Part shown: positions 6,419 through 53,000 of the stretch, in pieces
Layout of the letters: the number at the start of each line of letters is the position of its first letter
Position numbering within the stretch: the stretch's first letter is position 1
Source of the DNA: Barthelona sp. PCE
Taxonomy: Eukaryota
DNA: 64,000 bases
Assembly: GCA_040285745.1 (NCBI GenBank)
Contig: JAUFOR010000002.1
Location: 806,001 to 870,000 of the forward strand
Reading direction: 5' to 3'
Made by a program: the position numbers and the translations under genes
Notes under the pieces: model-generated
The model's input: the letters and a program-made list of their open reading frames with translations, nothing else
Databases searched by the model: none
Told to the model about the DNA's origin: nothing

Positions 6419-7444
6419 TTAAAGTGTATCAAAATATGCAAGTGCAAGGGGTAGGGCCTCTTCAGTACGAATTGTACGTGAACCCTGTGTGGGAAGGAAG
6501 TTCCACCAGAAGTTGAACAGATCTTCAACTTTTTCAATGCCACGCTTGTTCTTACAGAAGCTGAATGCGTGCTCAAGACCTGCAAGACCACCTAGGACCA
6601 GTAAAACATGGTTAGATTTCTTTTTGGCCTCGCCTATAGGACCTGTGTCATTTGATCCACGTTCACTCAGTCCAATCACAGTATCATACGCAGGGATGCC
6701 GAGTACGGAGTTGTCAAACACCTCAAGGAGATCTCCTGCCATACGCACTTGATATCCCCAATAGTACCCCTTCATCATCGGTTCCTCAGGATCAACAACC
6801 GTACCGGGTAACTTACGACTTGTGTAGTCCATGCGGACAGTAACTCTGCTACGATCTGGAATGGACCCGCGTACCTTAATTGGCTTCTCAAGGCCAACGT
6901 TGACTGTTGTAGACACGTCATCGCTGAACATCGTTACTCCCTCACGATACTCACTCTTCTCAGTGATACGAACATGATGCGGTGCATCAAGAGGATTTAA
7001 AGCACCACAGTACTTCAGCACGTGGTCGTGTTGAAACAAAGCCTTACGCAAATACTGAGGAGTTTCAAGATACTGTAAGATTTTTGCCATATGTACATTA
7101 TAATCAACATGTTCATCCTTAACTTCGCTTTCCTTGTAAATAACAATCTCGTGGACACAGAAGATTGCACAAAAACGTGCAATATTACCCACAAGAACAG
7201 TTCTCAATTTCTCAGATTGTACGTTTTCGAGGATACTTCCCGGTAATGCAATGGTAAGGGTTTGGTCTGTTGAGGCCTGGCCCTTGAATGCTGAACTCAC
7301 AAGATGCGCTGTTGGTTCGTATTCGCGATCAAAATGATTCTTAAACCTTCTTCTGTACTGTTGCCCTTCTTCATCTTTTGCTGTGCTTTGTGTGCCAGGG
7401 TGCTTGTTGTTGGCAGTGCGCTGTTGCTTCTTAGGTAATGCCAT
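6419..7444 (-). CDS. SPOUT1: SPOUT methyltransferase, C9orf114/SPOUT1 family
   Basis: Motifs LTIALPGSIL, ILQYLETPQYLRK, LNPLDAPHH, YREG, GYYWGYQVR and QGSRTIRTEEA. Confidence 0.92.
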   Translation of the reverse strand: MALPKKQQRTANNKHPGTQSTAKDEEGQQYRRRFKNHFDREYEPTAHLVSSAFKGQASTDQTLTIALPGSILENVQSEKLRTVLVGNIARFCAIFCVHEIVIYKESEVKDEHVDYNVHMAKILQYLETPQYLRKALFQHDHVLKYCGALNPLDAPHHVRITEKSEYREGVTMFSDDVSTTVNVGLEKPIKVRGSIPDRSRVTVRMDYTSRKLPGTVVDPEEPMMKGYYWGYQVRMAGDLLEVFDNSVLGIPAYDTVIGLSERGSNDTGPIGEAKKKSNHVLLVLGGLAGLEHAFSFCKNKRGIEKVEDLFNFWWNFLPTQGSRTIRTEEALPLALAYFDTL

Positions 7445-8042
7445 TATATTGAATTATGAAATAAATATCAATACAGCTTTTCCTTCTTTTTTTTATTTCT
7501 CAACAGGTGTTTAATTGCTCTTTAACTCAAAAAAACTATATATCATCCACTAAATATTTTGATTTACAAATATACACTAATATATACTAGTTATAAAGAG
7601 TTAAGCATCAGATCAAATCATTTATACTTCAAATACATTACAGTAATCTTCAAATGTATAATAAAAAAGAAGTTTAATGCTTCTTGTGATATCAAAATTG
7701 CGCAGGCTAGCTGTTTATTGCTTTACGATTAGAAATGCTGGTTTTCACTTGTAAATCAACCTGAAATTAACAATAAACACATACAAAGCATGATAGATCG
7801 AAATGGTAAAAGAACAAATTTCTAAAAAAGAGATGAAATTATTCAATAATATGGGTTTTCCATGGTTTTAAATCAATAACAATACTTTGAATATATATAT
7901 TACATTCATATTCATACAATTATTACCACAAAAACATAAAAATGATCTACTCATAAAAGTCTCTTAACTTACTTTTTGTAAACATGATTATTGACTTCAC
8001 AGTACTGCTAAGAGAAAGTTTTAGGCGTACTTGATAATGGTC

Positions 8043-8544
8043 CTGATCAGGATGATCCTTCGTAGGAGGTTGTAAATTTACTTCGGAGTTAGACACTTGT
8101 ACGGGAGTTGCGAGCTCCCTCGAGTGCTGTGCTTGCACTGAGAATTGTTCTAGAGCCCTTTTTTTTTTTTTTAAAATAAAAGGGGAGAAAGAAATGATGT
8201 AAGTACTCACAGAGTACAAGAGGGAAGACCGCGTGTCTACTCCTCAGTAGATTTACTCCTACGAAATAGCGTGTTATTCACAAGCGTGCCGTAATTGATT
8301 TTGAACAGAGAATGGAATAGAACGTATGCGGGTGTATTTCAATTTCTCACCATTTTAAGGTTTCCTATTTATTTTATTGTATTATTTAGTAATTGAAATA
8401 CTACTATTTTTCAGTTGTATGGACTTCCAAACTCTGAAGAAGGTAGCCCGTATGCGGCACCATATCCGAACTTAGATCTCTGGAAAGAATCTGTTTACTC
8501 CCCTTACTACCCGTTAACATGGATGAGACTCTGGAAGAAAATCA
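8043..8544 (+). repeat. Element B, copy 1 (8043-8059 plus 8291-8544), interrupted by element A
   Basis: Reverse complement of 44972-45240. By eye, the 254-bp main part differs by 6 substitutions and one 2-bp indel. Confidence 0.9.
8060..8290 (+). mobile_element. Element A, copy 1: non-coding foldback/structured repeat (MITE-like or structured RNA)
   Basis: Begins TCGTAGGAG, which pairs with CTCCTACGA (8256-8264). Nested arms fold around a central T/A tract. Homologous to 29563-29767. Absent from the otherwise co-linear element B copy at 45 kb. Confidence 0.75.
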
Positions 8545-8549
8545 TTATT

Positions 8550-8719
8550 CGCTATTTCGTAGAAGTAAATCTACCGGAGGAGTAAGCACGCGATCCTTCT
8601 TTGAGTACTATGCGGTACTCATTTCATTTCTTTCTACCCTTCACTCGAATATTTTTTTATAGTAGTTAATTTGGTATTTTCAAAAAAATTCAATATCAAG
8701 GTCGAGGCAGCTAGTAACT
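8550..8719 (-). repeat. Element A, copy 3: inverted and partly degenerate
   Basis: 8550-8641 is the reverse complement of the right arm of A. 8702-8719 (TCGAGGCAGCTAGTAACT) matches the reverse complement of the copy-2 left arm at 16/18 positions. Confidence 0.8.
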
Positions 8720-9060
8720 ACTCCATCGGTTTGTATTTGTGGAAATGCTTGGTATCCACATTTAATAAAAATTTAAGTCTGGCAAACTAAGAATATGTGT
8801 AATGCTGAGGCGTGTTGTATTTACAGGTTTACTATGGAATAACCAGGTCATTGATACATTTTATATACATCTAATGCTCAAATGTGAATGAAAAGCAATT
8901 TCAGCTTTTCTGAAGAGTATAGAAGCATAAGATACATGTTTGGTTCCTGTCAGCACCCAAGTGTCTTAACCAAGCGCATGTAATAAGCTGGAGTATTAAA
9001 ACAGCGAATTCAAATTGAATTACCTTTTTTCCACTTTATATTGTGTATGAAACTGTAGAA

Positions 9061-9120
9061 AAGATCCGCAAAGTACATGCTCAGCGCTATGACAGCGTTG
9101 TGCGCATTTTTGCGGAGCTT
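9061..9120. promoter_or_regulatory. GC-rich imperfect inverted repeat just upstream of beta-tubulin
   Basis: Nested pairs TCCGCAAA/TTTGCGGA, ATGC/GCAT and CAGCGCT/AGCGTTG. Ends ~40 bp before the ATG. Confidence 0.35.
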
Positions 9121-9161
9121 TGTGCCCAAAAGGTTTTCTAACTTTTAGATACATTTTTTAA

Positions 9162-10499
9162 ATGCGTGAAATCGTCCACATTCAAGCAGGCCAGTGCGGT
9201 AACCAGATCGGTAGCAAGTTCTGGGAGACCATTGCTGATGAGCACGGTGTTGATCCCACTGGTTCTTACCAGGGTCAATCCGACCTCCAATTGGAGCGTA
9301 TCAACGTTTACTTCAACGAAGCTGCCGGTGGCAAGTATGTCCCCCGTGCCGTTTTAGTTGATCTTGAGCCTGGTACTATGGATTCCATTCGTGGTAACGC
9401 TTATGGCCATCTCTTCCGTCCTGATAACTTTATCTTCGGTCAGACCGGTGCCGGTAACAACTGGGCCAAGGGTCACTATACCGAGGGTGCTGAGCTCATT
9501 GACTCCGTCCTCGATATCGTCCGTAAGGAGGCTGAGTCTTGTGACTGCCTTCAGGGTTTCCAGATCTGTCACTCTCTCGGTGGTGGTACTGGTGCCGGTA
9601 TGGGTACTCTCCTCATTGCCAAGATCCGTGAGGAGTATCCCGATCGTCAGATGTGTACTTTCTCTGTCGTTCCTTCCCCCAAGGTTTCTGATACCGTCGT
9701 TGAGCCTTATAACTGTACTCTTTCTGTTCACCAGCTTACTGAGAACTCCGAAGAGACCATGTGTATCGATAACGAAGCTCTTTACGATATTTGTTTCCGT
9801 ACCCTTAAGCTCACCACCCCTACCTATGGTGACCTCAACCACCTCGTTTCCATCGTTATGTCCGGTGTTACTTGCTGTCTCCGTTTCCCCGGTCAGCTCA
9901 ACTCCGATCTCCGTAAGCTCGCTGTTAACTTGGTTCCTTATCCTCGTCTTCACTTCTTCATGGTTGGTTTCGCTCCCCTCACTTCTCGTGGTTCTTCTGC
10001 CTACCGTCAGATCACTGTTCCCGAGCTCACTTCTCAGATGTTCCACTCTGGTAACATGATGGCTGCCTCTGATCCTCGTCACGGTCGTTACTTGACCTGT
10101 TCCGCCCTCTTCCGTGGTCGTATGTCCTCCAAGGAGGTTGATGAGCAGATGCTTAACATCCAGAACAAGAACTCTTCTTACTTCGTTGAGTGGATTCCCA
10201 ACAACATCAAGTCTTCCATTTGTGACATTCCTCCTAAGGGTCTTAAGATGGGTGTTACCTTCATTGGTAACTCCACCTGTATCCAGGAGCTCTTCAAGCG
10301 TGTCCACGATCAGTTCACCAAGATGTTCCGTCGTAAGGCATTCCTTCACTGGTACACTGGTGAGGGTATGGACGAGATGGAGTTCACCGAGGCTGAGTCC
10401 AACATGAACGATCTTGTTGCTGAATACCAACAGTACCAGGATGCCGTTGCTGAGGAGGAAGGCGAGTACGAAGAGGAGGAAGATGATTTCGAATACTAA
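9162..10499 (+). CDS. TUBB: Beta-tubulin
   Basis: [17 protein letters not shown] start, GGGTGAG signature, acidic C-terminal tail and strong codon bias. Confidence 0.99.
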
Positions 10500-19006: not shown

Positions 19007-22000
19007 TTATCTTACATTGAGACGTGATTTTGTGGCGTTGAATCCTGTCATACGGGCTTCTGATTCATTTAGAGCAGCAGCCAGAGGATGTATACCCTTG
19101 GAGAAGTCGGCATCAAAATACACAAGAGCATTTTCTACAGCAAGGATAACCTCATCACGCTCTTTGGATTGTGAAAGGTTCCAAACATAGTCGAACATAT
19201 AACCGGCATCACGGGAGGTCTGTAGTTCAACGGTAGCCTGGAGAATTACGGAATCTTTCTTCATTTTCGTCCTACCCTTAGTTCTTTCTAATTCAGCTTC
19301 ATACACATCATCAGGAATGACGAATGGATCAGTGAGATTGGGGATGAACCACTTCTTGAAATCAACCAGCTTATTGAGCTGCTTGACAAAAGCTTCGCTA
19401 CCGTCATAAATTGCAATATGCAAAAAGAGGTTAATGAAGGGGCTAACAGCAAACCCGATGTCAACATTGTTCATACACGCAGCAGCATACATGTACCACT
19501 CGCGGACACAATTCTCCAGATAATAACCGTGATTGTTAACATCGTGGATAATGAGTAGAGATTCGCAGAGACCACGTGTGGCCAAAGATGCTCTTTCTTG
19601 ATCCGTTGTTAGTTGGTAGAGTGAGCCCATGCAAGAGTTTTGAACATAAGGCAATGATGCAATCGTGAGTGACGGAAGAGTGTGATTATAACGAAGCTTA
19701 CTGACGCTGTCTGCCCAGATGTTCAAAACAACACCGAGTTTGAGCTGGACGTCAATTACCGAGGCCTGATTCGGGAAGACAGATGCGTCTAGAGTTGGAG
19801 CTTCAACAATATCCTTTTTGGCGACAAGCTCACTGTTGTAAATACTCTGTGGTTTAACAAAGACTTTGCTATTCACTACTTTAGAAAACGTATTGTATAA
19901 AGCGTAATCCTTCATGACCGCGGGACCAAGAACATCATTGATAGGAGAAACTGAAAGATGGTTCATCGACATTGCGATAAAATCTCCAAGGATAATACGA
20001 ACATCCTTGTTCATGAAGAACTGTTCGTCGATTTCTAGTCCATTTGCGTCTACATTCGGTAAAATAGAAACATACGAAGATGGAGAATTAATGACACTGA
20101 GATAGCCAATGTATCCTGTGGTATGGATTACACTCATTGGAACACGATAGGTTAGACCCAAAATACGCACAAGAGCCAGTACAGTGGGGAGAGAGACACC
20201 AGCTTGTTCGGAAAGGGCAATATAATAGTCAGTAAAGGTGTTCTTTATGTCTTCGTATTGGGGTTTGTTGCCAGCCAAGAAATACTGAACAAGACGATCA
20301 CCTTCGACGTGAGAGACGATTCCCACCTTCTTCTGGTACTTTTTGCGCATATCTTGTGGAAGACTAAAAAATTTGCGAAGATCGTCCTCGAGGTACACCT
20401 TATGCTTTGATTTGAGGTGGTTCTTTCCGTTAAGCTCAGTGACTGTGCGGATGCATGCTGCTGCGATTTCATCATGTAACAGGTTGTCATCCACAATAGG
20501 AGCTTGTAATATCAAATTCTGATCAGCAAAAAGATGAGCGTACTTGTTGTAGAAGTTCAGATCATACTGCTTCTCAACGTCGTCAATGGCCTCAGACACA
20601 TACTGTCTGTACTGAGGAGCAAGTCTCTTCGTCATGGAACGACGTTGAGCAGAGTCCATAAGCAAACCAAGCTTTAATCTTGATTTGTTATTGAAAAAGG
20701 CAAATCGTGAAATGAATAAAAACGCAGTGAATATACCCATTGTTGACAGCTTCATGTTATCAGGATCCTGCAGAACAAAGAAGAGAATGTAAACAAGACA
20801 ACTCATGAATCCCATAAACCAGGAGAAGGGACTTCTTTGTACACCCACCAGTGGAGCAGATGATCGAATCTGGAACGGAGGTGTGCTCAACCACCTTGTA
20901 GTGAGGGCAATGATGTTACCACCAGGTAAAGCAGCCCAAATCAAAGCTCTTGTTGTAGTTTCGACTTCAAGCATCTCCGATTCTTGGTCGACATTGGACG
21001 CAAGTGCAGCCCAACTTGTTACCGTGGGAGAAACACCCAATTTTTTCATGGAGAGATCACTGACCATTCTAACAAAGAAAAACGTGAAGAAGACAATGAA
21101 CAAAATGTATGGAATTACAAGGTAGATGATACCACTGCCCAGGCCTGCCGCAAGGACGATGAAACTCAGTAAAAGAGTAATACCCCAAGCCTTTGAAATC
21201 GCAGTGGTGGCGGTCTGAGAGTTTGCCTTCTGCTCTTCCTTCTCTTCCTGTTCTCTTGCATGCTCAATCTGAATGTTCGTCATATTCCGGTATTGTCGGA
21301 CACCCATGGCTTTCCTAAGCTCCTTTTCAATTTTCCTAATATGCCTTCCTAATCCATCAGATCGTTCCAGAAGAGAGACTTTACGATTCTTAACTGTCCA
21401 GACACCAAAGATGAGCGGGATAGACTTGAACGCAGCCCAAAGAATAAGGGTGACACCAGAGAACAAATACAAGACTAGAAGATTGATAAAGATTAGTGCA
21501 AAAGCTAATAAATTTGTAGCTCTACTTAAAATCCACATAATACAACCGCTGCGCTTTTCTCTAATCATAAAACCAAAAGCACTTCTCAAAAGTCTGTATA
21601 CACTTCCAAATCCAGCAAATATTTGAGTTAAGAACGTGAAAGATGACTTGGCAAACTTATGGGAGGGAAATGATGTGATTGCAATCATCGAGGGACCCAA
21701 AAGGAACAAAGTAAGCAAAAGTGATACAAGATTGATAACACGTGTGATATTTGCAACCTCACCATTTTCAAGCTCTGTGAAACCTGCTGTCCAGGTGGAA
21801 GACAGGATAGAAAGAAGGAAAAGAGTGCCGTAATAAAGAACACGGAACCATATCCAGTGCCAAAAATACTTGCTCTTTTTCGTGATCAAAGCAATAGAAC
21901 AACCATACTTAATTAAAAATTGAAACCAAATCGAAACCCAGAAGGTGAGGGACATCAGGAAAAGGGCAACAACAGCGCTGGCCCAAATTGGATCAATAGC

Positions 22001-22480
22001 TTTGATGGGAACCTTGACGATATCCATAATTTTGACAGCATAATTGTAGATGGGTACGATGACTCGGGCAAGAAAGTCGTTGACATCTGTGAGGTCAATA
22101 CCTATACTACCCATTAATAATGGCAGTTGAATAGCAAAACCAACAAACCATTGAGAGATAGTAGACATGATGGAATTAAGGATGGGAAGCGCCTTAGTGA
22201 TGCTGCTTGTGGCACCACCTCCCTTGAAACCTGCAAGAGCACGCAGACCAACGGTTTGAAGAGCATCTCCAAAACCGTTTTCACGTGACTGTATTCCACC
22301 TACATCTTTCTCTGCCTCAATGAGAGTTTCTGCAAATGTTACATTGTCTCCTTCGATGGACTTCGGGGTGCTCTTTATATTTGTCTCAATAATTGAAGTG
22401 TGTGGTGAATCAATGATGTTAAGCTGATTAGAGTTGCGATTAAAGTCATCTATAGCAATTGGATCAACAGGACTGCTCAT
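19007..22480 (-). CDS. Large multi-pass membrane protein with soluble C-terminal half, function unknown
   Basis: ~1157 aa ORF from ATG 22480 (MSSPVDP). Many TM segments in the first ~600 aa. Confidence 0.75.
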   Translation of the reverse strand: MSSPVDPIAIDDFNRNSNQLNIIDSPHTSIIETNIKSTPKSIEGDNVTFAETLIEAEKDVGGIQSRENGFGDALQTVGLRALAGFKGGGATSSITKALPILNSIMSTISQWFVGFAIQLPLLMGSIGIDLTDVNDFLARVIVPIYNYAVKIMDIVKVPIKAIDPIWASAVVALFLMSLTFWVSIWFQFLIKYGCSIALITKKSKYFWHWIWFRVLYYGTLFLLSILSSTWTAGFTELENGEVANITRVINLVSLLLTLFLLGPSMIAITSFPSHKFAKSSFTFLTQIFAGFGSVYRLLRSAFGFMIREKRSGCIMWILSRATNLLAFALIFINLLVLYLFSGVTLILWAAFKSIPLIFGVWTVKNRKVSLLERSDGLGRHIRKIEKELRKAMGVRQYRNMTNIQIEHAREQEEKEEQKANSQTATTAISKAWGITLLLSFIVLAAGLGSGIIYLVIPYILFIVFFTFFFVRMVSDLSMKKLGVSPTVTSWAALASNVDQESEMLEVETTTRALIWAALPGGNIIALTTRWLSTPPFQIRSSAPLVGVQRSPFSWFMGFMSCLVYILFFVLQDPDNMKLSTMGIFTAFLFISRFAFFNNKSRLKLGLLMDSAQRRSMTKRLAPQYRQYVSEAIDDVEKQYDLNFYNKYAHLFADQNLILQAPIVDDNLLHDEIAAACIRTVTELNGKNHLKSKHKVYLEDDLRKFFSLPQDMRKKYQKKVGIVSHVEGDRLVQYFLAGNKPQYEDIKNTFTDYYIALSEQAGVSLPTVLALVRILGLTYRVPMSVIHTTGYIGYLSVINSPSSYVSILPNVDANGLEIDEQFFMNKDVRIILGDFIAMSMNHLSVSPINDVLGPAVMKDYALYNTFSKVVNSKVFVKPQSIYNSELVAKKDIVEAPTLDASVFPNQASVIDVQLKLGVVLNIWADSVSKLRYNHTLPSLTIASLPYVQNSCMGSLYQLTTDQERASLATRGLCESLLIIHDVNNHGYYLENCVREWYMYAAACMNNVDIGFAVSPFINLFLHIAIYDGSEAFVKQLNKLVDFKKWFIPNLTDPFVIPDDVYEAELERTKGRTKMKKDSVILQATVELQTSRDAGYMFDYVWNLSQSKERDEVILAVENALVYFDADFSKGIHPLAAALNESEARMTGFNATKSRLNVR

Positions 22481-22908
22481 AATAGAATATAAGACTAAAA
22501 AAAAAAGAGATAAAAAAAGAAAACAGATATTTTGTGCGATTGTAGCTATATTCATCAACTTTACGGAAGATATTTTCTTTTTGGTGGATATAGTATGATG
22601 TAAATATATTTTAACAGAACTGTTGAGAACCTGTTAAACTATGTGGATTTTATCTCTTTATTTCCTGATAATTTTGCTGTGCAGCTTATATTTACTTCAA
22701 TTGCAGCTATTTTTTACTATAAAAAATCAATTAAAGAGATCATTGGTAGTTTTTCTCGTAATATGTTCAATACTTATAATATAGTAATATTTACTGTTGT
22801 TAAGATTTGATATAGATCACAGTAAGCTTTTTTAAAGATATAAAAAGACAACATACGTTACTTCTTTTTTGTTTTCTCAATTCTTTCTTTGTACACTTTT
22901 TTGGGCTT

Positions 22909-24647: not shown

Positions 24648-26324
24648 ATGTCACTTGCTTATTCTGCCATAGAAGAGCCCAGAAAGAACAAAGGTTCAAA
24701 GACTAACACTATTTTGTTGTTATTGACTGTAGTATTGGTTGTTTTCAACTTAGTTCTCATCATCTCTCGAGTGATGCCATTCAACGATCAGTTGAAGAAT
24801 ATCGATGATAATGTTCATGTTTTAGAGAAGAAGCATAATATCTTACCTGAGAAGGTTATTCTCAAGCCTTCAGCCATTCACCCCGTTTCAAACCAGGCTC
24901 ACCGTGGTACTTGTTGGTCCTTTGCTACTATTGGCGCTTTTGAGAGTGCTTACAAGCATCAAGCTATTCAACAAGGTTTCCTTGATCCCGATCAATATGT
25001 TAAGTTCTCTGAGCAGGCCCACGCCATCTCTGTCGTTGAGGAATGCAACACCGATATCAAGAAGTGCCCTATTGCTAACATGTGGTACTACAACCAAGCT
25101 TCAGATGGTTATGCAGTCTGGCTTTATACCTTCCAACAAGCTCTGTCCAAGCAGATCCTCCCTAACTCTGTCTGTCCCTACGTCACCGTTGAGGATACCC
25201 TTCCCGATAGCTGGACTCCCCACACTTTCGGTGAAGGTACTCTCAAGTGTGATGGTCAGAAGGCCGCTGAGGAGACTAACCCCGTCGAGTACGAGATCAA
25301 CAACATGAAGCATCTCTACACCAAGGACGAGATTAAAATGGCCCTTTTGGAGCGCGAGTATGTTCTCCCAATCTCCACAGCCCTCTTTGGTCCTGGTGAC
25401 TACGTCAAGTGTTCCACCCCCGGTTGGGCTGAGATGTGTCTCATCCGCAACGTCAGCTGTCCCGCTAAGATCGCCTACGGCGAGAAGTGTTACTTCATGC
25501 AAGGTAAGTCCGGTACCTCAGATGGTGCTTTCGTTTACGAAGAGGATGATAAGATGATTGGTGGTCACGGTATGGGTGTCGTTGGTATTCGCGAGAGCGG
25601 TATCATTGATCCCTTCCTCGGTCGTGAATTCGAACAGGGCTACTACATTCTCCGTAACAGTTGGGATTATACCAGCGGTCACTCCATTCAGTACCTCTCC
25701 GGCGAGATCAGTTTTTGGGATGAGCTCGAGCTCTGCCCTATGTGGTCTTCCCCTCGTAACTGGATCAAGTGTACTCGTGGTGCTGAGCATCATGAGGGCT
25801 TTGAGACTATTGCCGGTGCTTCATACCCCTGGTACTGGAACGCCACCGATATGCACCCCGCTATGATCAAGGCTAAGTCTGGTGGTAACGTCACTGCTCT
25901 TGGCTTCAACCCCGATATCAACTACTGTGTCGAATCTGCTGAGAAGGACAGCCCCAAGCGTTTTGAGGTTTGTTTCGCTGAGTCCGAGGATGGTTCCAAG
26001 AAGGAGGGCGGTGAGAAGCTTTGTCTCAGATCCGTTAACGTTGATTACCTCAACCGTCTCCTTGACCGTGTCGATGAATACCCCGAGAACGATCATGATA
26101 ACTGTGGTTACTGGGCATTCCCTCTTAGGTACGCTGATGAGGCCGCTGCTGCCGGTGCATTCTGGGTCCTCGACTTCGACATTGAGTTCTCCAAGTGTTC
26201 TTTCGCTAAGAACGCCAATTTGCCTGAGTGCCGTAAATTCGATTACACCCTTCTGAACCAGTCCACACACCGTGCACAGTACGCAACGTTCGAAACCCCT
26301 TTGCCTTGGCAGAAGAAATGGTAG
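24648..26324 (+). CDS. Papain-family (C1A) cysteine peptidase with N-terminal signal anchor and C-terminal extension
   Basis: Catalytic motifs QAHRGTCWSF, GGHGM and LRNSW. Type II TM near the N-terminus. Strong codon bias. Confidence 0.9.
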   Translation: MSLAYSAIEEPRKNKGSKTNTILLLLTVVLVVFNLVLIISRVMPFNDQLKNIDDNVHVLEKKHNILPEKVILKPSAIHPVSNQAHRGTCWSFATIGAFESAYKHQAIQQGFLDPDQYVKFSEQAHAISVVEECNTDIKKCPIANMWYYNQASDGYAVWLYTFQQALSKQILPNSVCPYVTVEDTLPDSWTPHTFGEGTLKCDGQKAAEETNPVEYEINNMKHLYTKDEIKMALLEREYVLPISTALFGPGDYVKCSTPGWAEMCLIRNVSCPAKIAYGEKCYFMQGKSGTSDGAFVYEEDDKMIGGHGMGVVGIRESGIIDPFLGREFEQGYYILRNSWDYTSGHSIQYLSGEISFWDELELCPMWSSPRNWIKCTRGAEHHEGFETIAGASYPWYWNATDMHPAMIKAKSGGNVTALGFNPDINYCVESAEKDSPKRFEVCFAESEDGSKKEGGEKLCLRSVNVDYLNRLLDRVDEYPENDHDNCGYWAFPLRYADEAAAAGAFWVLDFDIEFSKCSFAKNANLPECRKFDYTLLNQSTHRAQYATFETPLPWQKKW

Positions 26325-26501
26325 TAACCGATGGTAGCTCAACCCTAGTAAATTTTTAGTATATCCAACAATTTTTTTCCTAATGATACTGCAGGCTAAT
26401 ATGTAACAAAACAATGTAATATAGCCATTCGTTGATTCAAACAAGGTACCAACTGGTCCTTTGAGACGTATCTTTGATCTTTTCGATTTATTACTCTTAT
26501 C

Positions 26502-27875
26502 ATGAAGAGAATTTTATTTTTCATAGTTGCTGTGTTTCTGCTTGGTCTAGTTAGCGCCAACAACGACTTCGTATTCACCGATTGGTTCGAGCAAAAGCTT
26601 GATCACTTCGATTACACTAATGATGCTACATGGAAGCAGCGCTATCATATCAACCAGAAATACTGGGAGGGAGAAGGCCCTCTTATATTCTACATCGGTG
26701 GCGAGGGCCCCTGCACAAGTCGTTCTGTTGAAAGTGGTTTTGTTGTTGAAATTGCTGAGGAGCTTAAGGGACTTGTTATTGCTTTGGAACACCGTTTTTA
26801 TGGCGAATCCCAACCATTCCGCCACATGACTACTGAAAATTTAAAGTTCTTAAATTCTAAACAAGGTCTCACTGATCTCGCTCAATTTGTTTCCCATATT
26901 AAGAAGCAGATCGCTATTAACGGTTATACACCCAAGGTAATGGTTGTTGGTGGATCTTATCCTGGAGCTATGGCTTCTTGGTTCTGTTCTTGGTATGAGT
27001 CCAGTGGTCTCGTTGACTTCTGCTACTCTTCATCAGGTGTTATTAATGCCATTGAGAAGTTCACTACTTTTGATGACCTCATCATTTCCGTTACAGGTGA
27101 ACAATGCTCAACCGCCCTCCGTCGTATCTCTCGTCTGATTGATACCAAGCTCGAGGCGAAGGCCACCAACCGTGCCATCAAGAAGAGGCTCCTGGCTGAG
27201 AAGCTTATTGATGCTGACATCTACTACCTCGTTGCTGATGCTATGATTATGGGTCCTCAATACTCTCAGAAGTCTGCTCTTTGCAACCCCATCAACGATG
27301 CCATGTCCAAGCACGCCACCGATGAAGAGTTACTCACCGTTTTCATCCGTTATTTGACTGAGACATTCTATCCCAATATACTCCATTCTACATCTGCCGA
27401 ATATGATCGTAAGTATCTTTTAAAAACTGATACATCAAAATACGCTACTGCTTCTCGTGCCTGGTATTGGCAAAAATGTACTGACCTTGCTTACTTCCAG
27501 GTTTATTCTGAGGGAGATTTCCGTTCACCTCACCTCACTGTTGATTGGCATTTGGATAAGTGCAAGTCTGTATTTGGTATTGAGACTAGACCGAGAGTTG
27601 AAGAGACTAATGCTATTTTCGGCGGTGCAAACCCTAAGCACCAAAGAAATACCCTATATGTCAACGCACGTGACGATCCGTGGCAAGAAGCCAGTATTGA
27701 TAGATCTAAAGTAGCAGGAAATGCTAAGATTTCTTCAATTTTCATTACAGGTGATGAATCAGGTATGTACGGCCACTGTATTGACCTCCACGCATCTAAG
27801 AGTGATGACACCGAGGTTCTGAAGCAAGCTAGGAGAGATATCCTTGCCAAAGTCAAGTATTATTTGGGTATGTGA
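26502..27875 (+). CDS. Serine peptidase family S28 (PRCP/DPP7/thymus-specific serine protease-like)
   Basis: Signal peptide. Motifs FEQKLDHF, GGEG, LEHRFYGES, GGSYPG, DPW and HCIDL. Confidence 0.93.
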   Translation: MKRILFFIVAVFLLGLVSANNDFVFTDWFEQKLDHFDYTNDATWKQRYHINQKYWEGEGPLIFYIGGEGPCTSRSVESGFVVEIAEELKGLVIALEHRFYGESQPFRHMTTENLKFLNSKQGLTDLAQFVSHIKKQIAINGYTPKVMVVGGSYPGAMASWFCSWYESSGLVDFCYSSSGVINAIEKFTTFDDLIISVTGEQCSTALRRISRLIDTKLEAKATNRAIKKRLLAEKLIDADIYYLVADAMIMGPQYSQKSALCNPINDAMSKHATDEELLTVFIRYLTETFYPNILHSTSAEYDRKYLLKTDTSKYATASRAWYWQKCTDLAYFQVYSEGDFRSPHLTVDWHLDKCKSVFGIETRPRVEETNAIFGGANPKHQRNTLYVNARDDPWQEASIDRSKVAGNAKISSIFITGDESGMYGHCIDLHASKSDDTEVLKQARRDILAKVKYYLGM

Positions 27876-28263
27876 TTTTTTTAGTTTTATTCGCCTCGAC
27901 GAGTAAATAGTAAATTATTTTAATAACATAAATGATTTCATTATTCGTTATAAACACATTTGATAGATTTTGAAGAAATGAAACTTTCCTTTCTTCTTGC
28001 ATTTTCCATCAACTATTGCTTGTTTATCAGAGACTCGACGTCAAAAGTTTGATTAACAACAATTGTTATGTATTTATAGCGTGTTTAAACCTTATAGATA
28101 ATATTAGAATTCGTGCTCGGTAAACTGCCTATTCAATAGTCACAAAGTATACCGCGTGTAGAAAAGGACACGCCTGCACGATGCGCGCTCAGTTAACATG
28201 TTTTTACATTTTTATCCTCTTTCGGTTTCTCCTCTTTTCAGGAATTTAAGGCTTTAGGGCGAT

Positions 28264-29433
28264 ATGTTTAAATGTATTCTTATACTTTATATACTATTTT
28301 TGGCCACCGCTAATGCGGAAGCTTTTTATGATAAAAAATTTGATTTTCTGGGTGGTAAGTCGATTGTAGAATTGTATCATCATGTCAACAATTATTATAC
28401 GTTTAGGATGTTCTCCGTTGATGTAGAAAACGATCCTATTCCAGCAACACTCGATTACAGAACATCTTTTACAAGTAATGATCAGATCATTAAGACACAA
28501 GGAGCCTGTAATAGTTGTTTCGCAAATGCAGGAGTCACACTGGTTGAGGCAGTCGCTCAAGCCAAATACAATACAACCTTACCGTCACTAAGCGCCAAGC
28601 TCATCATGGATTGTACACCTAATTTTGCATGTGATAAATTCGGCTATCTGGAGGAGTGGTACATGTCCCATGATCGTGGTTATTTCGCAACAGAGTCTGA
28701 TTATCCATATGCTGCTGTGGTAGACACATGTCCAACGAATATTACAAAAGCAGAGCTTCCAGGAGAGCTTGGTTGGGGCTTAATCAGTTGGAATCCACGC
28801 CACGTGCCCACGGAAAAGGAGCTGAAGGCTGCCTTGGTGAAATACGGTCCTGTGTCAGCAGTGATTGATCAAGGTGCATCTATCCTATCGTGGGAGGCTG
28901 GTGACGCACCCGTTGGGAACTCACAGTGTTCGTTGGAAAACACAAACTCTCATTCAATTGTCATTGTTGGATACACAACGAATGCTTTCATATGTGCGAA
29001 TTCCTATGGTACAAGCGAGTTCGATGGTGGATATTTCTTGTTGGGATTCTCGACTTTAACTAACGCAGGATTTGGAACATGTGGCATGCTACAGGCAAAC
29101 CGCTTCGTGTGCTTTGGTGATGAGTGCCCACCGTTCAACTGGTTCAAAAAAATTTTTGACCCAGTCGATATCTGGGGGTTCGCACCAGGAGTAGGTATTT
29201 ATTTGTTTTTATTCTTCTTCCTTTGTTGCTGTTGTTGTTGCTACGACTGTTGTTGTTGTAATTGTTGTTGTTCAAAGAAGAAGCAACAGCGTGGTGTTGT
29301 AATCCCAACCACATTACTTCAGATGACAGTAAGGCCACCCATACAGCAGCCACCCATACAGCAGCCATCCTTTGGTATGACACAATCTCCCTCGAAAAGA
29401 GCGTTGCAAAAGGTATATGATGCTGATTACTAA
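28264..29433 (+). CDS. Membrane-anchored cathepsin-like C1A peptidase with poly-Cys tail
   Basis: Signal peptide, LDYR, QGACNSCFA, YGPVSA, HSIVIVGY and ANSYG..GGYF. TM helix then CCCCCCYDCCCCNCCC. Confidence 0.85.
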   Translation: MFKCILILYILFLATANAEAFYDKKFDFLGGKSIVELYHHVNNYYTFRMFSVDVENDPIPATLDYRTSFTSNDQIIKTQGACNSCFANAGVTLVEAVAQAKYNTTLPSLSAKLIMDCTPNFACDKFGYLEEWYMSHDRGYFATESDYPYAAVVDTCPTNITKAELPGELGWGLISWNPRHVPTEKELKAALVKYGPVSAVIDQGASILSWEAGDAPVGNSQCSLENTNSHSIVIVGYTTNAFICANSYGTSEFDGGYFLLGFSTLTNAGFGTCGMLQANRFVCFGDECPPFNWFKKIFDPVDIWGFAPGVGIYLFLFFFLCCCCCCYDCCCCNCCCSKKKQQRGVVIPTTLLQMTVRPPIQQPPIQQPSFGMTQSPSKRALQKVYDADY

Positions 29434-29562: not shown

Positions 29563-29767
29563 TCGTAGAAGGTTGTAAATTTACTTCGGAGTAAGGCATT
29601 TGTCCGTGAGTTACGAGCTCCCTCGAGTGCTGTGCTTGTGCTGAGAATTGTTCTAAAGCCCTTTTTTTCCAGAAAAGGGGGAGAAAGAAATGAAGTGAGT
29701 ACTCACAGAGTACTCGAGGAAGGATCGCGTGCTTACTCCTCAGGTAGATTTACGAAACAAGTGAGGC
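29563..29767 (+). mobile_element. Element A, copy 2
   Basis: Co-linear with 8060-8290 and has the same left boundary (TCGTAG). Shorter T tract and small deletions at the right end. Confidence 0.8.
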
Positions 29768-33129: not shown

Positions 33130-35229
33130 TTACTCACTGCTATCAATTAAATTAGCAAATGTATTATATAGAAAGTGTTTTTTAGGAATCTTATCAAAAA
33201 TTTCCTTATAACCAACAAGGTTAGGAATGAAAAATGGTTTTTCTAACAAATCTCTTAACTTTCTCAATATTTCATCATTGCTTAAATCACAAAAAAATAA
33301 TAACTCTGAAAAAAGCGACAGATTAGTTTTAAAAAAAATATCCATATGTGTAGTAGTGATGGTTTCTACATCAGCTAGGCGTATGTAACCTAATAAACAA
33401 TAAATTGACTCCCTAATTACGTTCAGACGCATGCTCACTGTTTGATTTTCAGCATTTGACTTATTCGACTGTAATATCTCGCTTAATAACTTATAATTGA
33501 AATAACTTTTAAACTTGGCAACAAAACTGATAAACAAAGACAAATCTGAATCATCATCAGTCAATGTATTGAAGAAGATGAATACAAGACTTGGGACGAA
33601 GTACAACATATCATCCGGTAGTTTTTCATTAAGAAGCAGATGGCTGAAAAGGTCAACGAAAATTGAATGGTACTCATCGCTTCTATTAATCAACTCTTGC
33701 AAAAACTTTGTCAAAATCGCATCTCCTGTCTCCATGTTCCTCGTTACCACGGTTAAAAAGCATACTAAAAGAGACGAATTGCCTGCAAAAACGTCCATCA
33801 GTGTAACGGCATTTGCTGATCTTTTTCGTTTTGAAAGCTTTAACATCTTACCCAGTTTTGCAAAGAAAACCTCGCTCACCACATTACGCGGTGCCTTTGC
33901 GAGAAGAGACAGTAATGCTTGAAGAACATGCAGCTCACCAGTTAAAAAAGTAGTTAGCTTCCTACTAAGGCATTCGTACATCAGCTCAATCTCTATGTCA
34001 CCAATCGGTAGTCTCAGTAGGGATTCCGAGAACTCGATTGCGACCGACAGATCAGGAATAGAATCGATGATGAGTTCGGCAACGTGGTCAATTGCGTCGT
34101 CCTGTTTGATTGTGATGAATGCGTTCAAAAAATCAGGCAGTAGAACTAGGAAGATCGAATCGGAGGGCCATTGTGGAATAGAACTTAAAAGTATGGTGTG
34201 AGTTTGTTCGAATCTCTCGGGGAAGAAACTCAAAAAAAGACACAACAATCCGTTACCAAGGTTGAGCAGCTCTTTGTTGTCGCCAGATGCCAGTCTCAGG
34301 GGGGCGTTATGTACTGCCCTAAAGACAGTATCCCAATTTGCAGTGATGATCACTTCAGGGTATGTCTTAACCATACCGATAAGACACTTCAAAACGGTTA
34401 TAACAAAGCCGAAGTGGAACTCGTCCTCGCAGTTCGTTGGACAGTTTTCGTAAAGATAATTGCCCAATGCCTCGATTACACTTGACCCATTGCTGTCTGT
34501 TGCGCTTAACGCGGCCTCTTTTGTGGGATCCGAGCCGATGAACAGACGAAGTGCTGCAACCCTGTGTGTGATCGGCTGGGTGAACAGCAGCTTGTGAATT
34601 GATTGGAGCACAATCGAAACAACGGATAACGGAGCCTCGACGTTCGCCCGCGCCACCGATAGGATGTGGAAAATTGCGTGCAACAGAGCCTCTCTCTGGT
34701 CGGAAGTGATGCCTATGTCGATCACAACAGGTAGAACCCGTAAGCAACAGTCTGCAAAACAATTTTTCTTGAGCTCAGTGTCTTTGGTTAGACCTGCTCT
34801 CATTAAAAGCACTAAAGAACGCCCGATCTGGTGCTTGAGCTCCCTGCTGATAGCTGCTCCCTTCGAGTGCAACACCTTTATCAGTGCCACTGTTATTTTA
34901 CGTACCTGATAGCTATTGTCCAGTAATCCGTTCAACAGTTTTAGAATTGATCTTGCTCGTGATAGGAAAATACTGTGATTTTCAATGAGGCTGCAGCAAC
35001 CCTTGAATGCATCTAGACGCACCTTATCGTTATAATGTGTGAGTTTGGTATTAAGTTGTTCAAAAGTTTGCCCCTTTGAGGTTGTAGGCTCTGAATTCTC
35101 GTTAACAATGGACTGCTCAGTTATTTTAATGTTCCTGATGGATGTATCAATCTCAGTCTCATTACTACCCTTTGTTCTTTGTTTTTTGCGTGCTTTCTGT
35201 GCTTTCCTTGCCCTCTGTTTGTGCCCCAT
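33130..35229 (-). CDS. TEX10/Ipi1-like pre-rRNA processing protein (HEAT repeats)
   Basis: Basic N-terminus, then SNET..IKITEQSI and LTHYNDKVRLDA..LLDNSYQVRK, matching the Ipi1/TEX10 N-terminal pattern. Confidence 0.65.
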   Translation of the reverse strand: MGHKQRARKAQKARKKQRTKGSNETEIDTSIRNIKITEQSIVNENSEPTTSKGQTFEQLNTKLTHYNDKVRLDAFKGCCSLIENHSIFLSRARSILKLLNGLLDNSYQVRKITVALIKVLHSKGAAISRELKHQIGRSLVLLMRAGLTKDTELKKNCFADCCLRVLPVVIDIGITSDQREALLHAIFHILSVARANVEAPLSVVSIVLQSIHKLLFTQPITHRVAALRLFIGSDPTKEAALSATDSNGSSVIEALGNYLYENCPTNCEDEFHFGFVITVLKCLIGMVKTYPEVIITANWDTVFRAVHNAPLRLASGDNKELLNLGNGLLCLFLSFFPERFEQTHTILLSSIPQWPSDSIFLVLLPDFLNAFITIKQDDAIDHVAELIIDSIPDLSVAIEFSESLLRLPIGDIEIELMYECLSRKLTTFLTGELHVLQALLSLLAKAPRNVVSEVFFAKLGKMLKLSKRKRSANAVTLMDVFAGNSSLLVCFLTVVTRNMETGDAILTKFLQELINRSDEYHSIFVDLFSHLLLNEKLPDDMLYFVPSLVFIFFNTLTDDDSDLSLFISFVAKFKSYFNYKLLSEILQSNKSNAENQTVSMRLNVIRESIYCLLGYIRLADVETITTTHMDIFFKTNLSLFSELLFFCDLSNDEILRKLRDLLEKPFFIPNLVGYKEIFDKIPKKHFLYNTFANLIDSSE

Positions 35230-43900: not shown

Positions 43901-44794
43901 TTACAACTCAGCCATGACAATGCTGGGAAAGAAGTGATAAGATGGTGTTGTCGTTTTTGCAATATATATATCACCCATTATCGTGCGCACGTTGACATTC
44001 ATCGCTGTTTCGGCTTCGTTGTGCATTGTTGCGCCAACCTGACTGCTCATTGAGAATCCTTTGTTTTCAACAACTCCCTTCTTACTGAGAATATCATACG
44101 TGAACTCAACATCTGTGTGTAGCTTAACAACGATGTTTCCTGTTGCTGTAGACGCGCTGAGGTCTGACCCGGTCATGTGGAGCGCATTAATTGTACCAAA
44201 TGTGGAGTGTACGTCAGCCATGTTGTTTGCTGTCGACTCGCGGACCTCGATGTTGCCGCTTAGCGTGCGCACGAGCAAGTCATCAACATCAGCACCCTTT
44301 ACGGTGATTTTTGTTTTCTGACCAACAATATTTGCAGTCTTAGCATGTACTCCCTTACGCAGAACAACAGAGCCCTTGTCTACAACAATTTTCAGCAAAT
44401 CTAGTACTTTGTGTCGAGGAACATAAAGTTCAACAGAGCTATGCTTATGTGTCTTTCCCTGTGAAACGTATAGTGTTGAAATACTCTTACGTTTATGTGT
44501 CTTGTGCACAAGCATGAGCTTGCTGACACCAACAACAACATCGTTTGTGTCGTGAGGGATAACCACTACCCTTGCGAATCCAGCCTGTACTACAATTCGA
44601 TCTATTTCTTCAGATGTGAATGTTTTTTGAGAGGATATGGTATCGTATCTTGTCTTGAATATGAATGAAATAACACCAACTGATAAAAAAAGAAAAAATA
44701 CGAGTGCAATTAGAGATACTGTGCTAATTATACGTCGTTTGGTTTTTGGAAGCTGGTAAAGATCGTATACGCTCACTGGTAACACTGATCGCAT
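43901..44794 (-). CDS. DUF4097 (putative adhesin) beta-strand repeat protein with N-terminal TM helix
   Basis: Repeats of x-V-x-T/S-x-x-G-x-I: VRTLSGNI, VHSTFGTI, ASTATGNI and VRTIMGDI. Confidence 0.7.
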   Translation of the reverse strand: MRSVLPVSVYDLYQLPKTKRRIISTVSLIALVFFLFLSVGVISFIFKTRYDTISSQKTFTSEEIDRIVVQAGFARVVVIPHDTNDVVVGVSKLMLVHKTHKRKSISTLYVSQGKTHKHSSVELYVPRHKVLDLLKIVVDKGSVVLRKGVHAKTANIVGQKTKITVKGADVDDLLVRTLSGNIEVRESTANNMADVHSTFGTINALHMTGSDLSASTATGNIVVKLHTDVEFTYDILSKKGVVENKGFSMSSQVGATMHNEAETAMNVNVRTIMGDIYIAKTTTPSYHFFPSIVMAEL

Positions 44795-44971
44795 GTTTAT
44801 GGTCTCGAGAACGTGAAATAAGAGATTTAAACAATACTTAGTATTTTCACTTAGTTTGTAGGTTCGTAGTTTTTTTTTAATCAGCCTTTTTGGACATGAA
44901 TCCTCATATGCGGCTGGTAAATGGTTAAAAACATACCCAACACATCACTTTTACTTTTACAACTCATAAGT

Positions 44972-45240
44972 TGATTTTCTTCCAGAGTCTCATCCATGTT
45001 AACGGGTAGTAAGGGGAGTAAACAGATTCTTTCCAGAGATCTAAGTTCGGATATGGTGCCACATACGCTACCTTCTTCAGAGTTTGGAAATCCATACATC
45101 TGAAAAATGGTAGTATTTCAATTACTAAATAATACAATAAAATAAATAGGAAACCCTAAAATGGTGAGAAATTGAAATACACCCGCATACGTTCTATTCC
45201 ATTCTATGTTCAAAATCAATTACAGGATCGTCCTGATCAG
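44972..45240 (-). repeat. Element B, copy 2 (uninterrupted, empty-site form)
   Basis: Reverse complement of 8043-8059 joined directly to 8291-8544. Contains an internal inverted repeat GTATTTCAATT..AATTGAAATAC. Confidence 0.9.
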
Positions 45241-45767
45241 AGCTAAAACCCAAATATTTGATTCTACACAGTATTGTGATACAGCAAAAAAGCCATAATA
45301 ACCTTTAAATATCTGAAATTGTGCTACAAAGAAGAAAAAATATTCAACAAAAAATAAAAAAGAGCAGGTTTTTTTCATTACATAGAAAGCAAAGGTTTTT
45401 CACTAAAGGGAAGTTTAATCCGATATTTATGTTAATTTTCATAAATAAAGAAAGAATGAAATTGAACAGTTTCAACAAACTTATATTTCTCTATCGCAAG
45501 CCAATCGTACATAGATTTACATTACACACTCATGTACACTGAACATATTGCAAGTTCAATACAGTCTGAGCTTTGCCTGAGATCAAAGGATCAGGTTTGG
45601 CAGTTTGGGTCCTGCAAAGAAATTTAGTTATAGTCTGCTTAATTTAATCATACAGGGGGAGTCACACCCATGGTAAAGCATCACAGAAGCTATAAAATAA
45701 GGAAATTAAACATTAGTATTGAAAACTTTTTTCTTACCTTTATTACTTAACTTACTCGTTATCTGTA

Positions 45768-50063: not shown

Positions 50064-53000
50064 ATGAAAAGGGAACTTTCAGAGGAAGAAATCCAAGACA
50101 GAGAGCCATTCAAATTCGGATCTATGGAAAAGAGCAAGAACATTGATCTTTTTGCTTCTAGAACACGTGTATCACGAAAGGATGCATCAAAACTCATCAA
50201 GAATATTAAGAATCTCACAGGAGGAGATGAGGGGCCTATTATTGAGCGCATTTCAGGACAAGACTATATGCTTTTTATGCCTGAGATTCTCTCTGCACTT
50301 TTTACTTCGCCTTTACGCACTAACGATGACATTGTTGCTGCTGCAAAGATCATTAGCGTTGTTACACAAAAGTATGGAGTTGAAGAACTCCATTCCCAAT
50401 TAGATAGTATTCTTGCACCCGTTATGCCCAATAGAAAGGAGGCTCTCGGCCAGAAGCCAAGCAACGACCGAATCACACGCCTCAAGCTTCGTCGTGCATA
50501 TTTAAAGTTGGTTAGTGAGCTGCATTATTTGGGTGTAGTAGATTCTCTTTTCCATTTCATTAAACAACAATTACGCGATTTCGAGTTCATCACAACGGTA
50601 GATTCTGTCCCAGCTCTTCCTGTACTTATGGGATTCCTTCAATCTCATCTATGGGTAATTTACAATGATACCGATATAATGCCATTCTTGAAGAAGTATT
50701 CAAAAGGTTTATGCAAGGTTTATGAATCGATCAATCAACGTGGTATTGAACTGAGATCGAAACAGATGCACACAATTTCCAAAGGTTCTCTGCATGACTT
50801 CACCAGCGAGATCGAGCAGCTTGATTCCTTTGAAAAGAAGTTGAGATTATCACTAGAAGGCCTGTGCACACTCTTTGAGCTTGAAAAGCCTTGGGAGAAA
50901 ATTGATCTTGTTGTTGAGGCTGAGGTTGAAGTGGCGGACATCACAACCACTGCGAAAGAGGATGAGTACTTCCCCTTTGACGATAAAACCGACTATGGTT
51001 TCTACAGAACCATCCCCGATCTCACAGACTATATGCAATGTGTTGCTGAGGAGGAAAATGAGAAGGAGGAAGAAGAGGAAGAATATGAACCTGAGGAGAT
51101 TAGTGGCGAAATGGAAAGTGAGGAACGAGAGTTAAGTCCGATTCAGTGCTGGCTTAACAATTATGTTAGAAATCCAGACATTGTTTTGCACAAAACGAAT
51201 TTTATGGAGATGTTCAAGGAGTTCGCTCGCATACATACAAGAAATTATGTTAAGAAATTGATTCCACGTGTAATTTTGCTACATTCAAACAATAATATGT
51301 TCAATATTAGTTACTATGCAAAATTCTTAAAGGCTGTGAGCATGCTGTATCCAAACATCATACAGGTTGTGAGGAATATAATGATCAAGTTCCTCGATTT
51401 CACTGTCAAAGGTGGACACGATATCAAGCACATTCGTGAGAGTGTTAAGCAGCAAAAGATGCTGCACTTCCTTGTTGAGCTTTTCAAATTCTCATTCTTT
51501 GAAGGAAGCACACTTGAGGAGATGAAGGAAATGAGCGGCGAGTCGCCGCTCAACGACGACGACAAATTCATTTTCCGCTACATTGTTTTGTTGATGGAAG
51601 AACTTGTGGGCAACAACATTGACCACATTTGTTTCTTGTTGCAGGCAGTTGGACGTACTATTCTCCGTAAAAGCGCCACCCGTAACGAGATGCTGAGCCG
51701 TTTGGGCGAGCTCAACGAGAGGCTGAAGCTGGGTGTTTTTAAGCGTAAAACCATTGCAGTTAAGCATGCCCTGAGTCTGTGCTTCTTGAGCTCTGGTCAG
51801 CAAATGCTGCAGAGCTATTCGGAGGCATATATTGAGCACATTTTTGATGAGATTTTTGATTCAACTCCTGTTGAAACCCTCTTGGAAGTACTCAACACGC
51901 TTCCTCTGGGTGAGCTGGCCAATTTCGGGGGATATCCCGCCCTCGAGCACGAAGATGGTGAAGAAGTCATCATGATCGACACTGGTCTAACTGTACAAGA
52001 GTTTGTTATTATATGCCTGGTTAAGCAGGCAATGAAGAGTGAACAGTGCTCACATCACCTTGCGTTATTTCTTCAAGGTTCAATGAACGCATATCCTAGT
52101 TTGGTACTTGAGGTTCTCGTTACAACATTTGGCTTGTTACACCAGTTTTATGAGAGAGAGATTGAGTTATTCAATGACACAATTGAGTTTGATGTGAATG
52201 ATCCTGTTCTCAAATTGTATGCTCGACGTAATCTTCTTCTGTTCTGTGTCATTGTTGTTTTTACTCCAAAACTTACGACATCACAATTCCGCAAGATTGA
52301 TATCCTCAATATTGTACAGCGACTGCTTGTTCTCCCTGTTTCAAAGGAGTTTTTGTTTGAGTTGACAGAGAAGACCAGCACTCGCCACGAGTCTATGCGT
52401 GCTCTCATCAACTTCCGTATCATTGGGCTCGCAACAGTGTTTGGATATCACCATGTCCACAGCGGATTGGGAAAAGATATTCACGCGTTCTGGCAACCGT
52501 TCTGTGATTTAATGAACGGTCTTGCTCAGTTTGACCTTGTACGATACAATGCGCTTTGTTTGTTTGATAGGGTCATGAAGAAGTATCAAGAGGACAAGAA
52601 GAAGGAGATTGTAGAAATTGAGTTTGCCGAGTTCTCCGACGTTGAAGAATCCGAAGAGGAGGAAGAGGACGAAGAGACGCAGCGCCTTGCTGATGAAGAA
52701 TTTGACAAGGAGTACAGTAGCATGCTCGAGGAGGCATCAAGAACTGCGCACGGACAACAGACCAGCGACCGTCTGGACAGATTAAAAGTGAGTACGGTTA
52801 TCCAGTCTGACATGAGAGAGCGCACGACGCGCCGCTATGGCCTTCTCACATCAAAGGGTGGAAAACCAATTATCAAGCAGACCAGTCTAACTGTTAGTGC
52901 TGATCGCGAAAGGATGGTGACTGTGGAACGCAGCCGAAGGCAAGAGAGGGATGTTTCTCTCCATCAGAAGTTCATTGACAGGTTCGACTCGGACAGTGAG

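Follow-up and report, generated by a model that had tools for sequence, protein, structure and literature searches.

A probable non-autonomous hairpin element in the compact nuclear genome of Barthelona sp. PCE

Small non-coding DNA elements with a capacity to fold back on themselves are represented by several described systems, the family features of which are used here as general knowledge. Miniature inverted-repeat transposable elements (MITEs) are short, non-coding and bounded by terminal inverted repeats, and the staggered-cut DDE transposases leave a fixed duplication at the target. Canonical Helitrons end in CTRR on their 3' side, insert between A and T and contain a hairpin of 16-20 nt near the 3' end, while the IS200/IS605-derived elements of prokaryotes move as a single strand by 'peel and paste', with seamless insertion and excision, insert 3' of a fixed tetra- or pentanucleotide and possess two different subterminal hairpins. 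Hairpin-RNA and microRNA-like loci form a further point of comparison. Here, we describe element A, a dispersed hairpin-forming repeat found in a 64,000-nucleotide stretch of the Barthelona sp. PCE genome (GenBank assembly GCA_040285745.1, contig JAUFOR010000002.1, positions 806,001 to 870,000 of the forward strand), which is referred to below as the window and the numbering of which is used throughout. One copy of element A interrupts a second, unrelated repeat, repeat B, an uninterrupted copy of which is present in the same window and provides an empty site for comparison. The element is previously undescribed and departs from MITEs in one defining feature, the target-site duplication. Searches of the literature on Barthelona, on metamonad miniature inverted repeats, on eukaryotic hairpin elements devoid of a target-site duplication and on Giardia palindromic elements yielded no description of such an element.

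Element A and the empty site in repeat B

An initial annotation of the window, made from the sequence alone, had reported three intergenic copies of element A without a convincing open reading frame (ORF). A repeat search, BLASTN and nhmmer (with --max) agree with this description: there are exactly three copies in the window, here called A1, A2 and A3, with no further match at E<1. All three lie in intergenic spacers and no ORF of at least 30 aa starting with ATG runs over A1. The copies of element A and of repeat B (B1 and B2) are as follows.

8060..8290, + strand: A1, the complete inserted unit of 231 nt, consisting of the hairpin and a 3' tail; nhmmer E 5e-77; interrupts B1 relative to B2
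8060..8264, + strand: rod-like hairpin of A1, TCGTAGGAG ... CTCCTACGA; folded as RNA over 8060-8266 and as single-stranded DNA over 8060-8290
8265..8290, + strand: 3' tail of A1, 26 nt, unpaired and outside the palindrome; absent from the empty site B2
29563..29767, + strand: A2, the second copy; nhmmer E 1.5e-67
about 8546..8720, - strand: A3, an old decayed copy; nhmmer E 6.4e-45
8043..8059, + strand: left part of B1, 17 nt, CTGATCAGGATGATCCT; 16/17 identical to 45224-45240 (- strand) of B2; directly 5' of A1
8291..8544, + strand: right part of B1; 96.85% identical to 44972-45223 (- strand) over 254 nt; directly 3' of A1
44972..45240, - strand: B2, the uninterrupted copy of repeat B, which is the empty site; about 97% identical to B1

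The position of the A1 insertion corresponds in B2 to the bond between nucleotides 45224 and 45223, at the junction ...GATCCT/GTAATT.... Whereas B2 reads ...GACGATCCT/GTAATTGATT... across this point, B1 reads ...GATGATCCT (TCGTAGG ... AAGCGTGCC) GTAATTGATT..., where the parentheses enclose A1, and the two junctions of the insert are therefore ...CCT/TCG... and ...GCC/GTA.... The insert starts with TCG, ends with GCC and is bordered by CCT and GTA, which leaves only one possible placement of the 231 nt. In this insertion, the only one that can be tested for duplication in the window, the target-site duplication amounts to 0 bp and bases of the target were neither lost nor added. The 17-nt left motif of repeat B, on which this register depends, has only one match in the window besides those in B1 and B2, a 3-mismatch match that overlaps it within the palindrome of B1 itself; three matches were found in all, a number reached by none of 100 shuffles. 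A MAFFT alignment that set the 17-nt left part of B2 against the tail of A1 was rejected, the match of 16/17 at 8043-8059 being the right register. A recombinase-type core shared by the A1 junctions was likewise discarded on inspection, as the only string common to them, CC, is off by one base. Two small palindromes, CCTGATCAGG and AGGATGATCCT, occupy 8043-8059 just upstream of the insertion point, placing A1 directly 3' of a potential hairpin; as a single site, this arrangement is indistinguishable from chance.

The sequences of A1 and A2 have diverged by approximately 16%, in contrast to approximately 3% between the host repeats B1 and B2. A1 is accordingly a recent insertion, and its source copy had by then become different from A2 and A3. 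Either the insertion of A1 postdates the split between B1 and B2, or the element left B2 (or its ancestor) seamlessly, and in both cases a discrete unit has moved. The proposal in the initial annotation that element A is a non-autonomous mobile element is thus supported by B2, a paralogous site from which A1 is absent.

BLASTN aligns A1 with A2 over 198 nt at 83.8% identity, and their homology begins at the same base, TCGTAG, in unrelated flanks, which makes the 5' boundary of the element sharp. A3 has kept its right arm, which matches A2 at 89.5% identity over 76 nt and A1 at 79.6% over 93 nt, and has suffered deletions in the left arm. A2 is short by 6 nt at its right end and has consequently lost the outer 8-bp stem. 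Beyond the palindrome, the first 9 nt of the A1 tail (AATAGCG..) are common to A3, and no second occurrence of the whole 26-mer exists in the window, even when 3 mismatches are allowed. The tail includes a direct repeat of AGCGTG (8268-8273 and 8283-8288, 9 nt apart), which may be the mark of a small duplication at the 3' end of the element.

Three other readings of the termini were considered and abandoned. The end of A2 could not be aligned to the A1 tail, the only shared portion that aligns being ...TCCTCA(G)GTAGATTTAC. A 4-nt repeat, ACAA, at the flanks of A2 is taken as chance, since AATAGCG follows the palindrome in both A1 and A3. Finally, an insertion of B1 into the tail of A3, with 7991-8043 continuing that tail, was rejected on a local alignment score of 10, which is below the average of 11.4 for shuffles; scores at least as high were obtained with 1710 of 2000 shuffles and with 2072 of the 2414 segments of the window.

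The host repeat itself is a non-coding sequence of 272 nt, present in two copies that are approximately 97% identical, and is not structured (RNA z -0.54). It reads TGATCAGG...GAAAATCA, starting with TG and ending with CA. A flanking duplication of 4-6 bp of the type associated with solo long terminal repeats (LTRs) is absent from both copies, the flanks being GGTCC/TTATT for B1 and AGCTC/ACTTA for B2. An intron-like stretch, GTATGC ... TACTAC ... TTTTTCAG, extends over about 8324-8415, and each of the two copies lies upstream of a gene in the same orientation, namely that for beta-tubulin and a DUF4097 ORF (43901-44794). Repeat B may represent another mobile family or a 5' leader that has been duplicated.

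Fold, strand polarity and covariation

The body of element A is one long imperfect palindrome, a foldback of approximately 205 nt, with a short unpaired tail on one side. The initial annotation had described A1 as a rod-like hairpin paired from end to end, and each of the stems it listed is present in the sequence and recurs in the minimum-energy fold. As RNA, A1 folds with -77.8 kcal/mol on the + strand (z -6.96) and with -70.6 kcal/mol on the - strand (z -7.36), and on both strands none of 200 shuffles folds as well; as single-stranded DNA, its + strand has a z of -5.6. For A2, the corresponding z values are -4.94 (+ strand) and -2.99 (- strand) as RNA, and -1.96 (+ strand) and -1.65 (- strand) as single-stranded DNA. 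The rod is far beyond shuffles for A1 and A2, while the fold of A3 is not significant (z -1.9 on its own strand, which is the - strand of the window, and -1.1 on the + strand of the window); A3 is an old copy that is decaying without constraint.

When the minimum-energy structure of A1 is applied to the alignment of the three copies, 76.9% of the cells pair, compared with 39-48% with slid partners, and the rod is therefore real. The differences between copies on which a claim of covariation had been founded were quoted correctly. The stem AGACAC/GTGTCT of A1 corresponds to AGGCAT/GTGCTT in A2, with a clean double change from A-U to G-C at alignment columns 44/197 and a change of two neighbouring pairs to G-U, and TAGAAG (A2) and CTTCTA (A3), when taken together, imply a further double change. 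On the other hand, the 7-bp stem containing columns 44/197 has gained an A-A mismatch in A2. As evidence for selection on the fold, the covariation among the three sequences does not rise above chance: 3 pairs are changed on both sides, where shuffles have 2.9 and 315 of 500 reach the observed number; the score for covariation, at 0.145, stands against 0.134 in shuffles and is reached by 160 of 500; and the covariation term of RNAalifold is unfavourable at +6.45. Furthermore, a DNA palindrome in which both arms are recognized or corrected against each other should acquire compensatory changes just as readily, and such changes cannot separate RNA from DNA.

The strand polarity of G-U pairs, also pointed out in the initial annotation, is not confirmed beyond chance. 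In the minimum-energy folds the + strand does have an excess of G-U pairs over the - strand (5 vs 2 in A1 and 11 vs 2 in A2), and the + strand of A2 is more stable than the - strand by 23.8 kcal/mol. The null distribution for this strand difference was obtained from perfect palindromes built from the arms of A2 and decayed by 25 or 35 random substitutions, with 100 runs in each of four settings. The simulated difference has a standard deviation of approximately 12 kcal/mol and reaches 23.8 kcal/mol in 8, 6, 6 and 3 of 100 runs, which makes the bias marginal, and the strand difference of A1 is well inside the simulated range. A symmetric arm-against-arm alignment dispels the excess, with G-T and A-C mismatches numbering 2 v 3 in A1, 5 v 3 in A2 (7 v 6 for these two copies together) and 4 v 6 in A3, and the latter copy, in the opposite orientation, has no G-U excess on its own strand. 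The + strand is T-rich around both A1 and A2 (AT skew -0.13 and -0.07, respectively), and a strand-biased C-to-T mutation could be a simple alternative source of G-T on the + strand. The conclusion drawn from the covariation and these pairs in the initial annotation, namely selection on the fold of a single-stranded molecule of one polarity, is consequently left unsupported, given that the two strands of A1 fold about equally well, that A2 has dispensed with its outer stem and that A3 has lost the fold.

The element had not been recognized as a known RNA family, in agreement with a search of Rfam 15 over the whole window, which gave no match at the gathering score. Over 7900-8800, relaxing the threshold to E up to 10 returned seven sub-threshold matches at chance level, none of them credible and none of them to a ribozyme, and inspection for hammerhead-type motifs found none. 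Pattern scans beyond the window retrieved no matches in viral contigs, none in the contigs of prokaryote genomes and two stretches in metagenome contigs; the latter were both set aside as chance, with no similarity outside a 21-mer.

Possible origins of element A

The observations above are best accounted for, with a probability that we put at roughly 60%, if element A is a mobile non-autonomous hairpin element forming a small non-coding DNA family. Such an element would depend for its movement on a trans-acting enzyme from another part of the genome, which would recognize the hairpin or its foot, and the rod-like fold would then be a by-product or a recognition feature of the DNA palindrome and not evidence of an RNA function. 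Classical cut-and-paste is disfavoured because the junction is seamless, the 5' end is sharp and the 3' end is unverified. A nick-and-join mechanism, either HUH/rolling-circle-like or recombinase-like, might operate instead on a hairpin formed by single-stranded DNA; if the element is indeed mobile, this sub-mechanism is the leading candidate, albeit at less than even odds. Several points weigh against a mobile element of this kind. The ends of the upstream target differ between copies (..TCCT at A1 and ..ACAA at A2), which is at odds with a site-specific HUH or Y1 enzyme, and the GCC end of A1 and its position between T and G are unlike the CTRR terminus and A/T site of Helitrons. The 3' boundary is fixed for A1 only and is not confirmed for the family, since A3 shares just the first 9 nt of the tail and the end of A2 does not align. 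Three copies are visible and just one insertion can be tested for duplication. The initial annotation had advised looking for a transposase or another mobility ORF, but no transposase, Rep/helicase, recombinase, reverse-transcriptase or integrase domain was detected by a Pfam scan of 35 long ORFs of the window. Moreover, a lone insertion of this seamless type might result from the one-time capture of a DNA fragment during break repair.

In this last case, a copy of element A together with some of its flank would have been end-joined into a clean double-strand break in B1, or transferred by gene conversion or template switching, and the family might no longer be mobile. The missing duplication is what such an event would leave, as is the presence in the insert of 26 nt beyond the palindrome, only the first 9 of which are common to another copy. 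However, the 5' end of the insert coincides with the 5' end of the family as defined by A2, which is unexpected for a random fragment, the target bases are intact and a search within the window found no donor for the tail, so that we regard capture as unlikely. Slightly less credit still is given to selection of the fold in a single strand of one polarity, whether as a mobile structured RNA (a retrozyme- or viroid-like RNA or a hairpin feeding small RNAs) or as a family of structured non-coding RNA genes. The greater stability and G-U content of the + strand of A2, and to a lesser extent those of A1, speak for it, together with the double change in the long stem, the second one inferable across copies and the fact that A1, which must be near its source copy, is already an imperfect rod with G-U pairs. 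These signals are countered by covariation at the level of shuffles, by a strand asymmetry that 3-8 of 100 randomly decayed palindromes reproduce and that the symmetric count abolishes, by the equal z-scores of the A1 strands, by copies that have lost the outer stem (A2) or the fold altogether (A3), by the lack of a ribozyme or any other Rfam match and by the local T-richness of the + strand, through which a mutational bias could yield G-T pairs. In addition, a T14 tract is found at the apex of the hairpin, where it would stop RNA polymerase III, as is generally known. An equally doubtful proposal is that element A forms an end or an inner part of a larger element, for example as an LTR, a repeat of the DIRS/Ngaro type or a foldback terminus, perhaps in association with repeat B, and that the window contains its debris. 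Three of the five repeat copies (A1, B1 and A3) are indeed clustered within 0.7 kb, and the TG and CA ends of repeat B resemble those of long terminal repeats, but A2 occurs without repeat B and B2 without element A, neither B copy has a flanking duplication and no reverse-transcriptase, integrase or recombinase ORF was seen in the window.

A more specific version of the mobile hairpin element, to which we attach only a small probability, is that of a eukaryotic nuclear element moving seamlessly through a single-stranded intermediate (by an HUH/Y1 enzyme, by rolling-circle nick-and-join or by an RNA-templated route), with the rod of one strand as the substrate. If true, the single-strand route would account for the lack of a duplication, for a tail on one side only and for the surplus of G-U pairs on the + strand, and the element would be a eukaryotic counterpart of bacterial palindrome-associated elements.

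Genomic setting and comparison with known systems

At 10.2 Mb, the genome of Barthelona sp. PCE, which is assembled in 8 contigs with a G+C content of 40.3% and 4.46% of repeats, has been reported as the smallest known among free-living eukaryotes; in the accessible portion of that report, repeats are given only as a masked percentage and no transposable element is described (PMC11316075). The strain is called Microbarthelona vorax in a 2026 taxonomic paper (PMC13087550). The window has the same character, being very compact and intron-poor, with a G+C content of approximately 41%. Its 37 ORFs of at least 150 aa cover 84% of the 64 kb, with spacers of often 1-100 bp, and terminate in TAA (25), TAG (8) or TGA (4). 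Compaction is extreme: convergent genes are separated by 1-44 bp, and overlaps occur in two pairs of ORFs (61168-61187 and 62267-62280). Only two spacers exceed 900 bp, 7445-9161 and 44795-45767, and both contain copies of A or B. A1 and A3 share a divergent spacer of 1717 bp between a methyltransferase gene and the beta-tubulin gene, while A2 is located in a spacer of 484 bp. The two genes bordering the A1 spacer are the following.

6419-7444, - strand: SPOUT-type methyltransferase ORF; closest relative only 48% identical
9162-10499: beta-tubulin ORF; protein 100% identical, over its full length, to an NCBI protein of Barthelona sp. PCE

The cluster of this NCBI protein has 3 member sequences. 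Because the longest contig of this cluster measures 1.33 Mb and the contig of the window itself 2.13 Mb, identical beta-tubulin copies seem, from the sequence records, to be present on different contigs of the genome. Among the other genes of the window, two papain-family peptidases and an S28 peptidase stand in a row (24648-29433), and several of the named genes encode leucine-rich repeat proteins. Of the 35 long ORFs scanned, 14 lack any Pfam family at E up to 0.001 (for example 18-1694, 19007-22555, 33130-35229 and 50064-53123), and proteins of 1182 and 1019 aa are among them. A tRNA search of the window found none.

A recently active and seamlessly inserted hairpin element in sequence that is 84% coding would mean that mobile DNA persists even in such a genome, where element A sits in the few longer intergenic spacers, that is, in promoter regions. 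Should the missing duplication hold genome-wide, the element would fall outside the scheme of DDE-derived MITEs and point to an unrecognized mobilizing enzyme in metamonads; should it fail, element A would be just one more ordinary MITE family, new but of no more than local interest.

With hairpin-RNA and microRNA-like loci, element A shares a long imperfect hairpin of approximately 95 bp that contains G-U pairs and that, if transcribed, could plausibly be cut by Dicer, but it has no Rfam match and no covariation above chance. Its likeness to non-autonomous Helitrons resides in the lack of a duplication, the TC start (TCGTAG in A1 and A2), the sharp 5' end, the less certain 3' end and the hairpin signal. 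In contrast to Helitrons, A1 ends in ...AAGCGTGCC (GCC and not CTRR), the insertion site is T/G and not A/T, and the hairpin makes up the whole element.

The IS200/IS605-derived elements resemble element A in being small, non-coding and hairpin-based and in inserting seamlessly without a duplication, and a strand-specific mechanism may be counted among the shared traits. Element A differs from these in its upstream flanks, which vary between the two sites compared (..GATCCT at A1 and ..GTACAA at A2), in consisting of one long rod, in the absence of a visible Y1 transposase from the window and in residing in a eukaryotic nuclear genome.

In its build, element A also resembles MITEs and foldback elements, with two reservations. 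The initial annotation had already set element A apart from an ordinary MITE with terminal inverted repeats, and the 0-bp duplication at the one testable insertion and the unpaired 26-nt tail, found on one side only, agree with that distinction; because the target-site duplication is missing, the element is not classed as a DDE-derived MITE. In other respects the likeness is extensive: element A is short and non-coding, its ends TCGTAGGAG and CTCCTACGA pair and its body is palindromic, so that the whole element is a hairpin, and it is intergenic and dispersed, varies in presence and absence between paralogous sites and is represented by old copies that decay.

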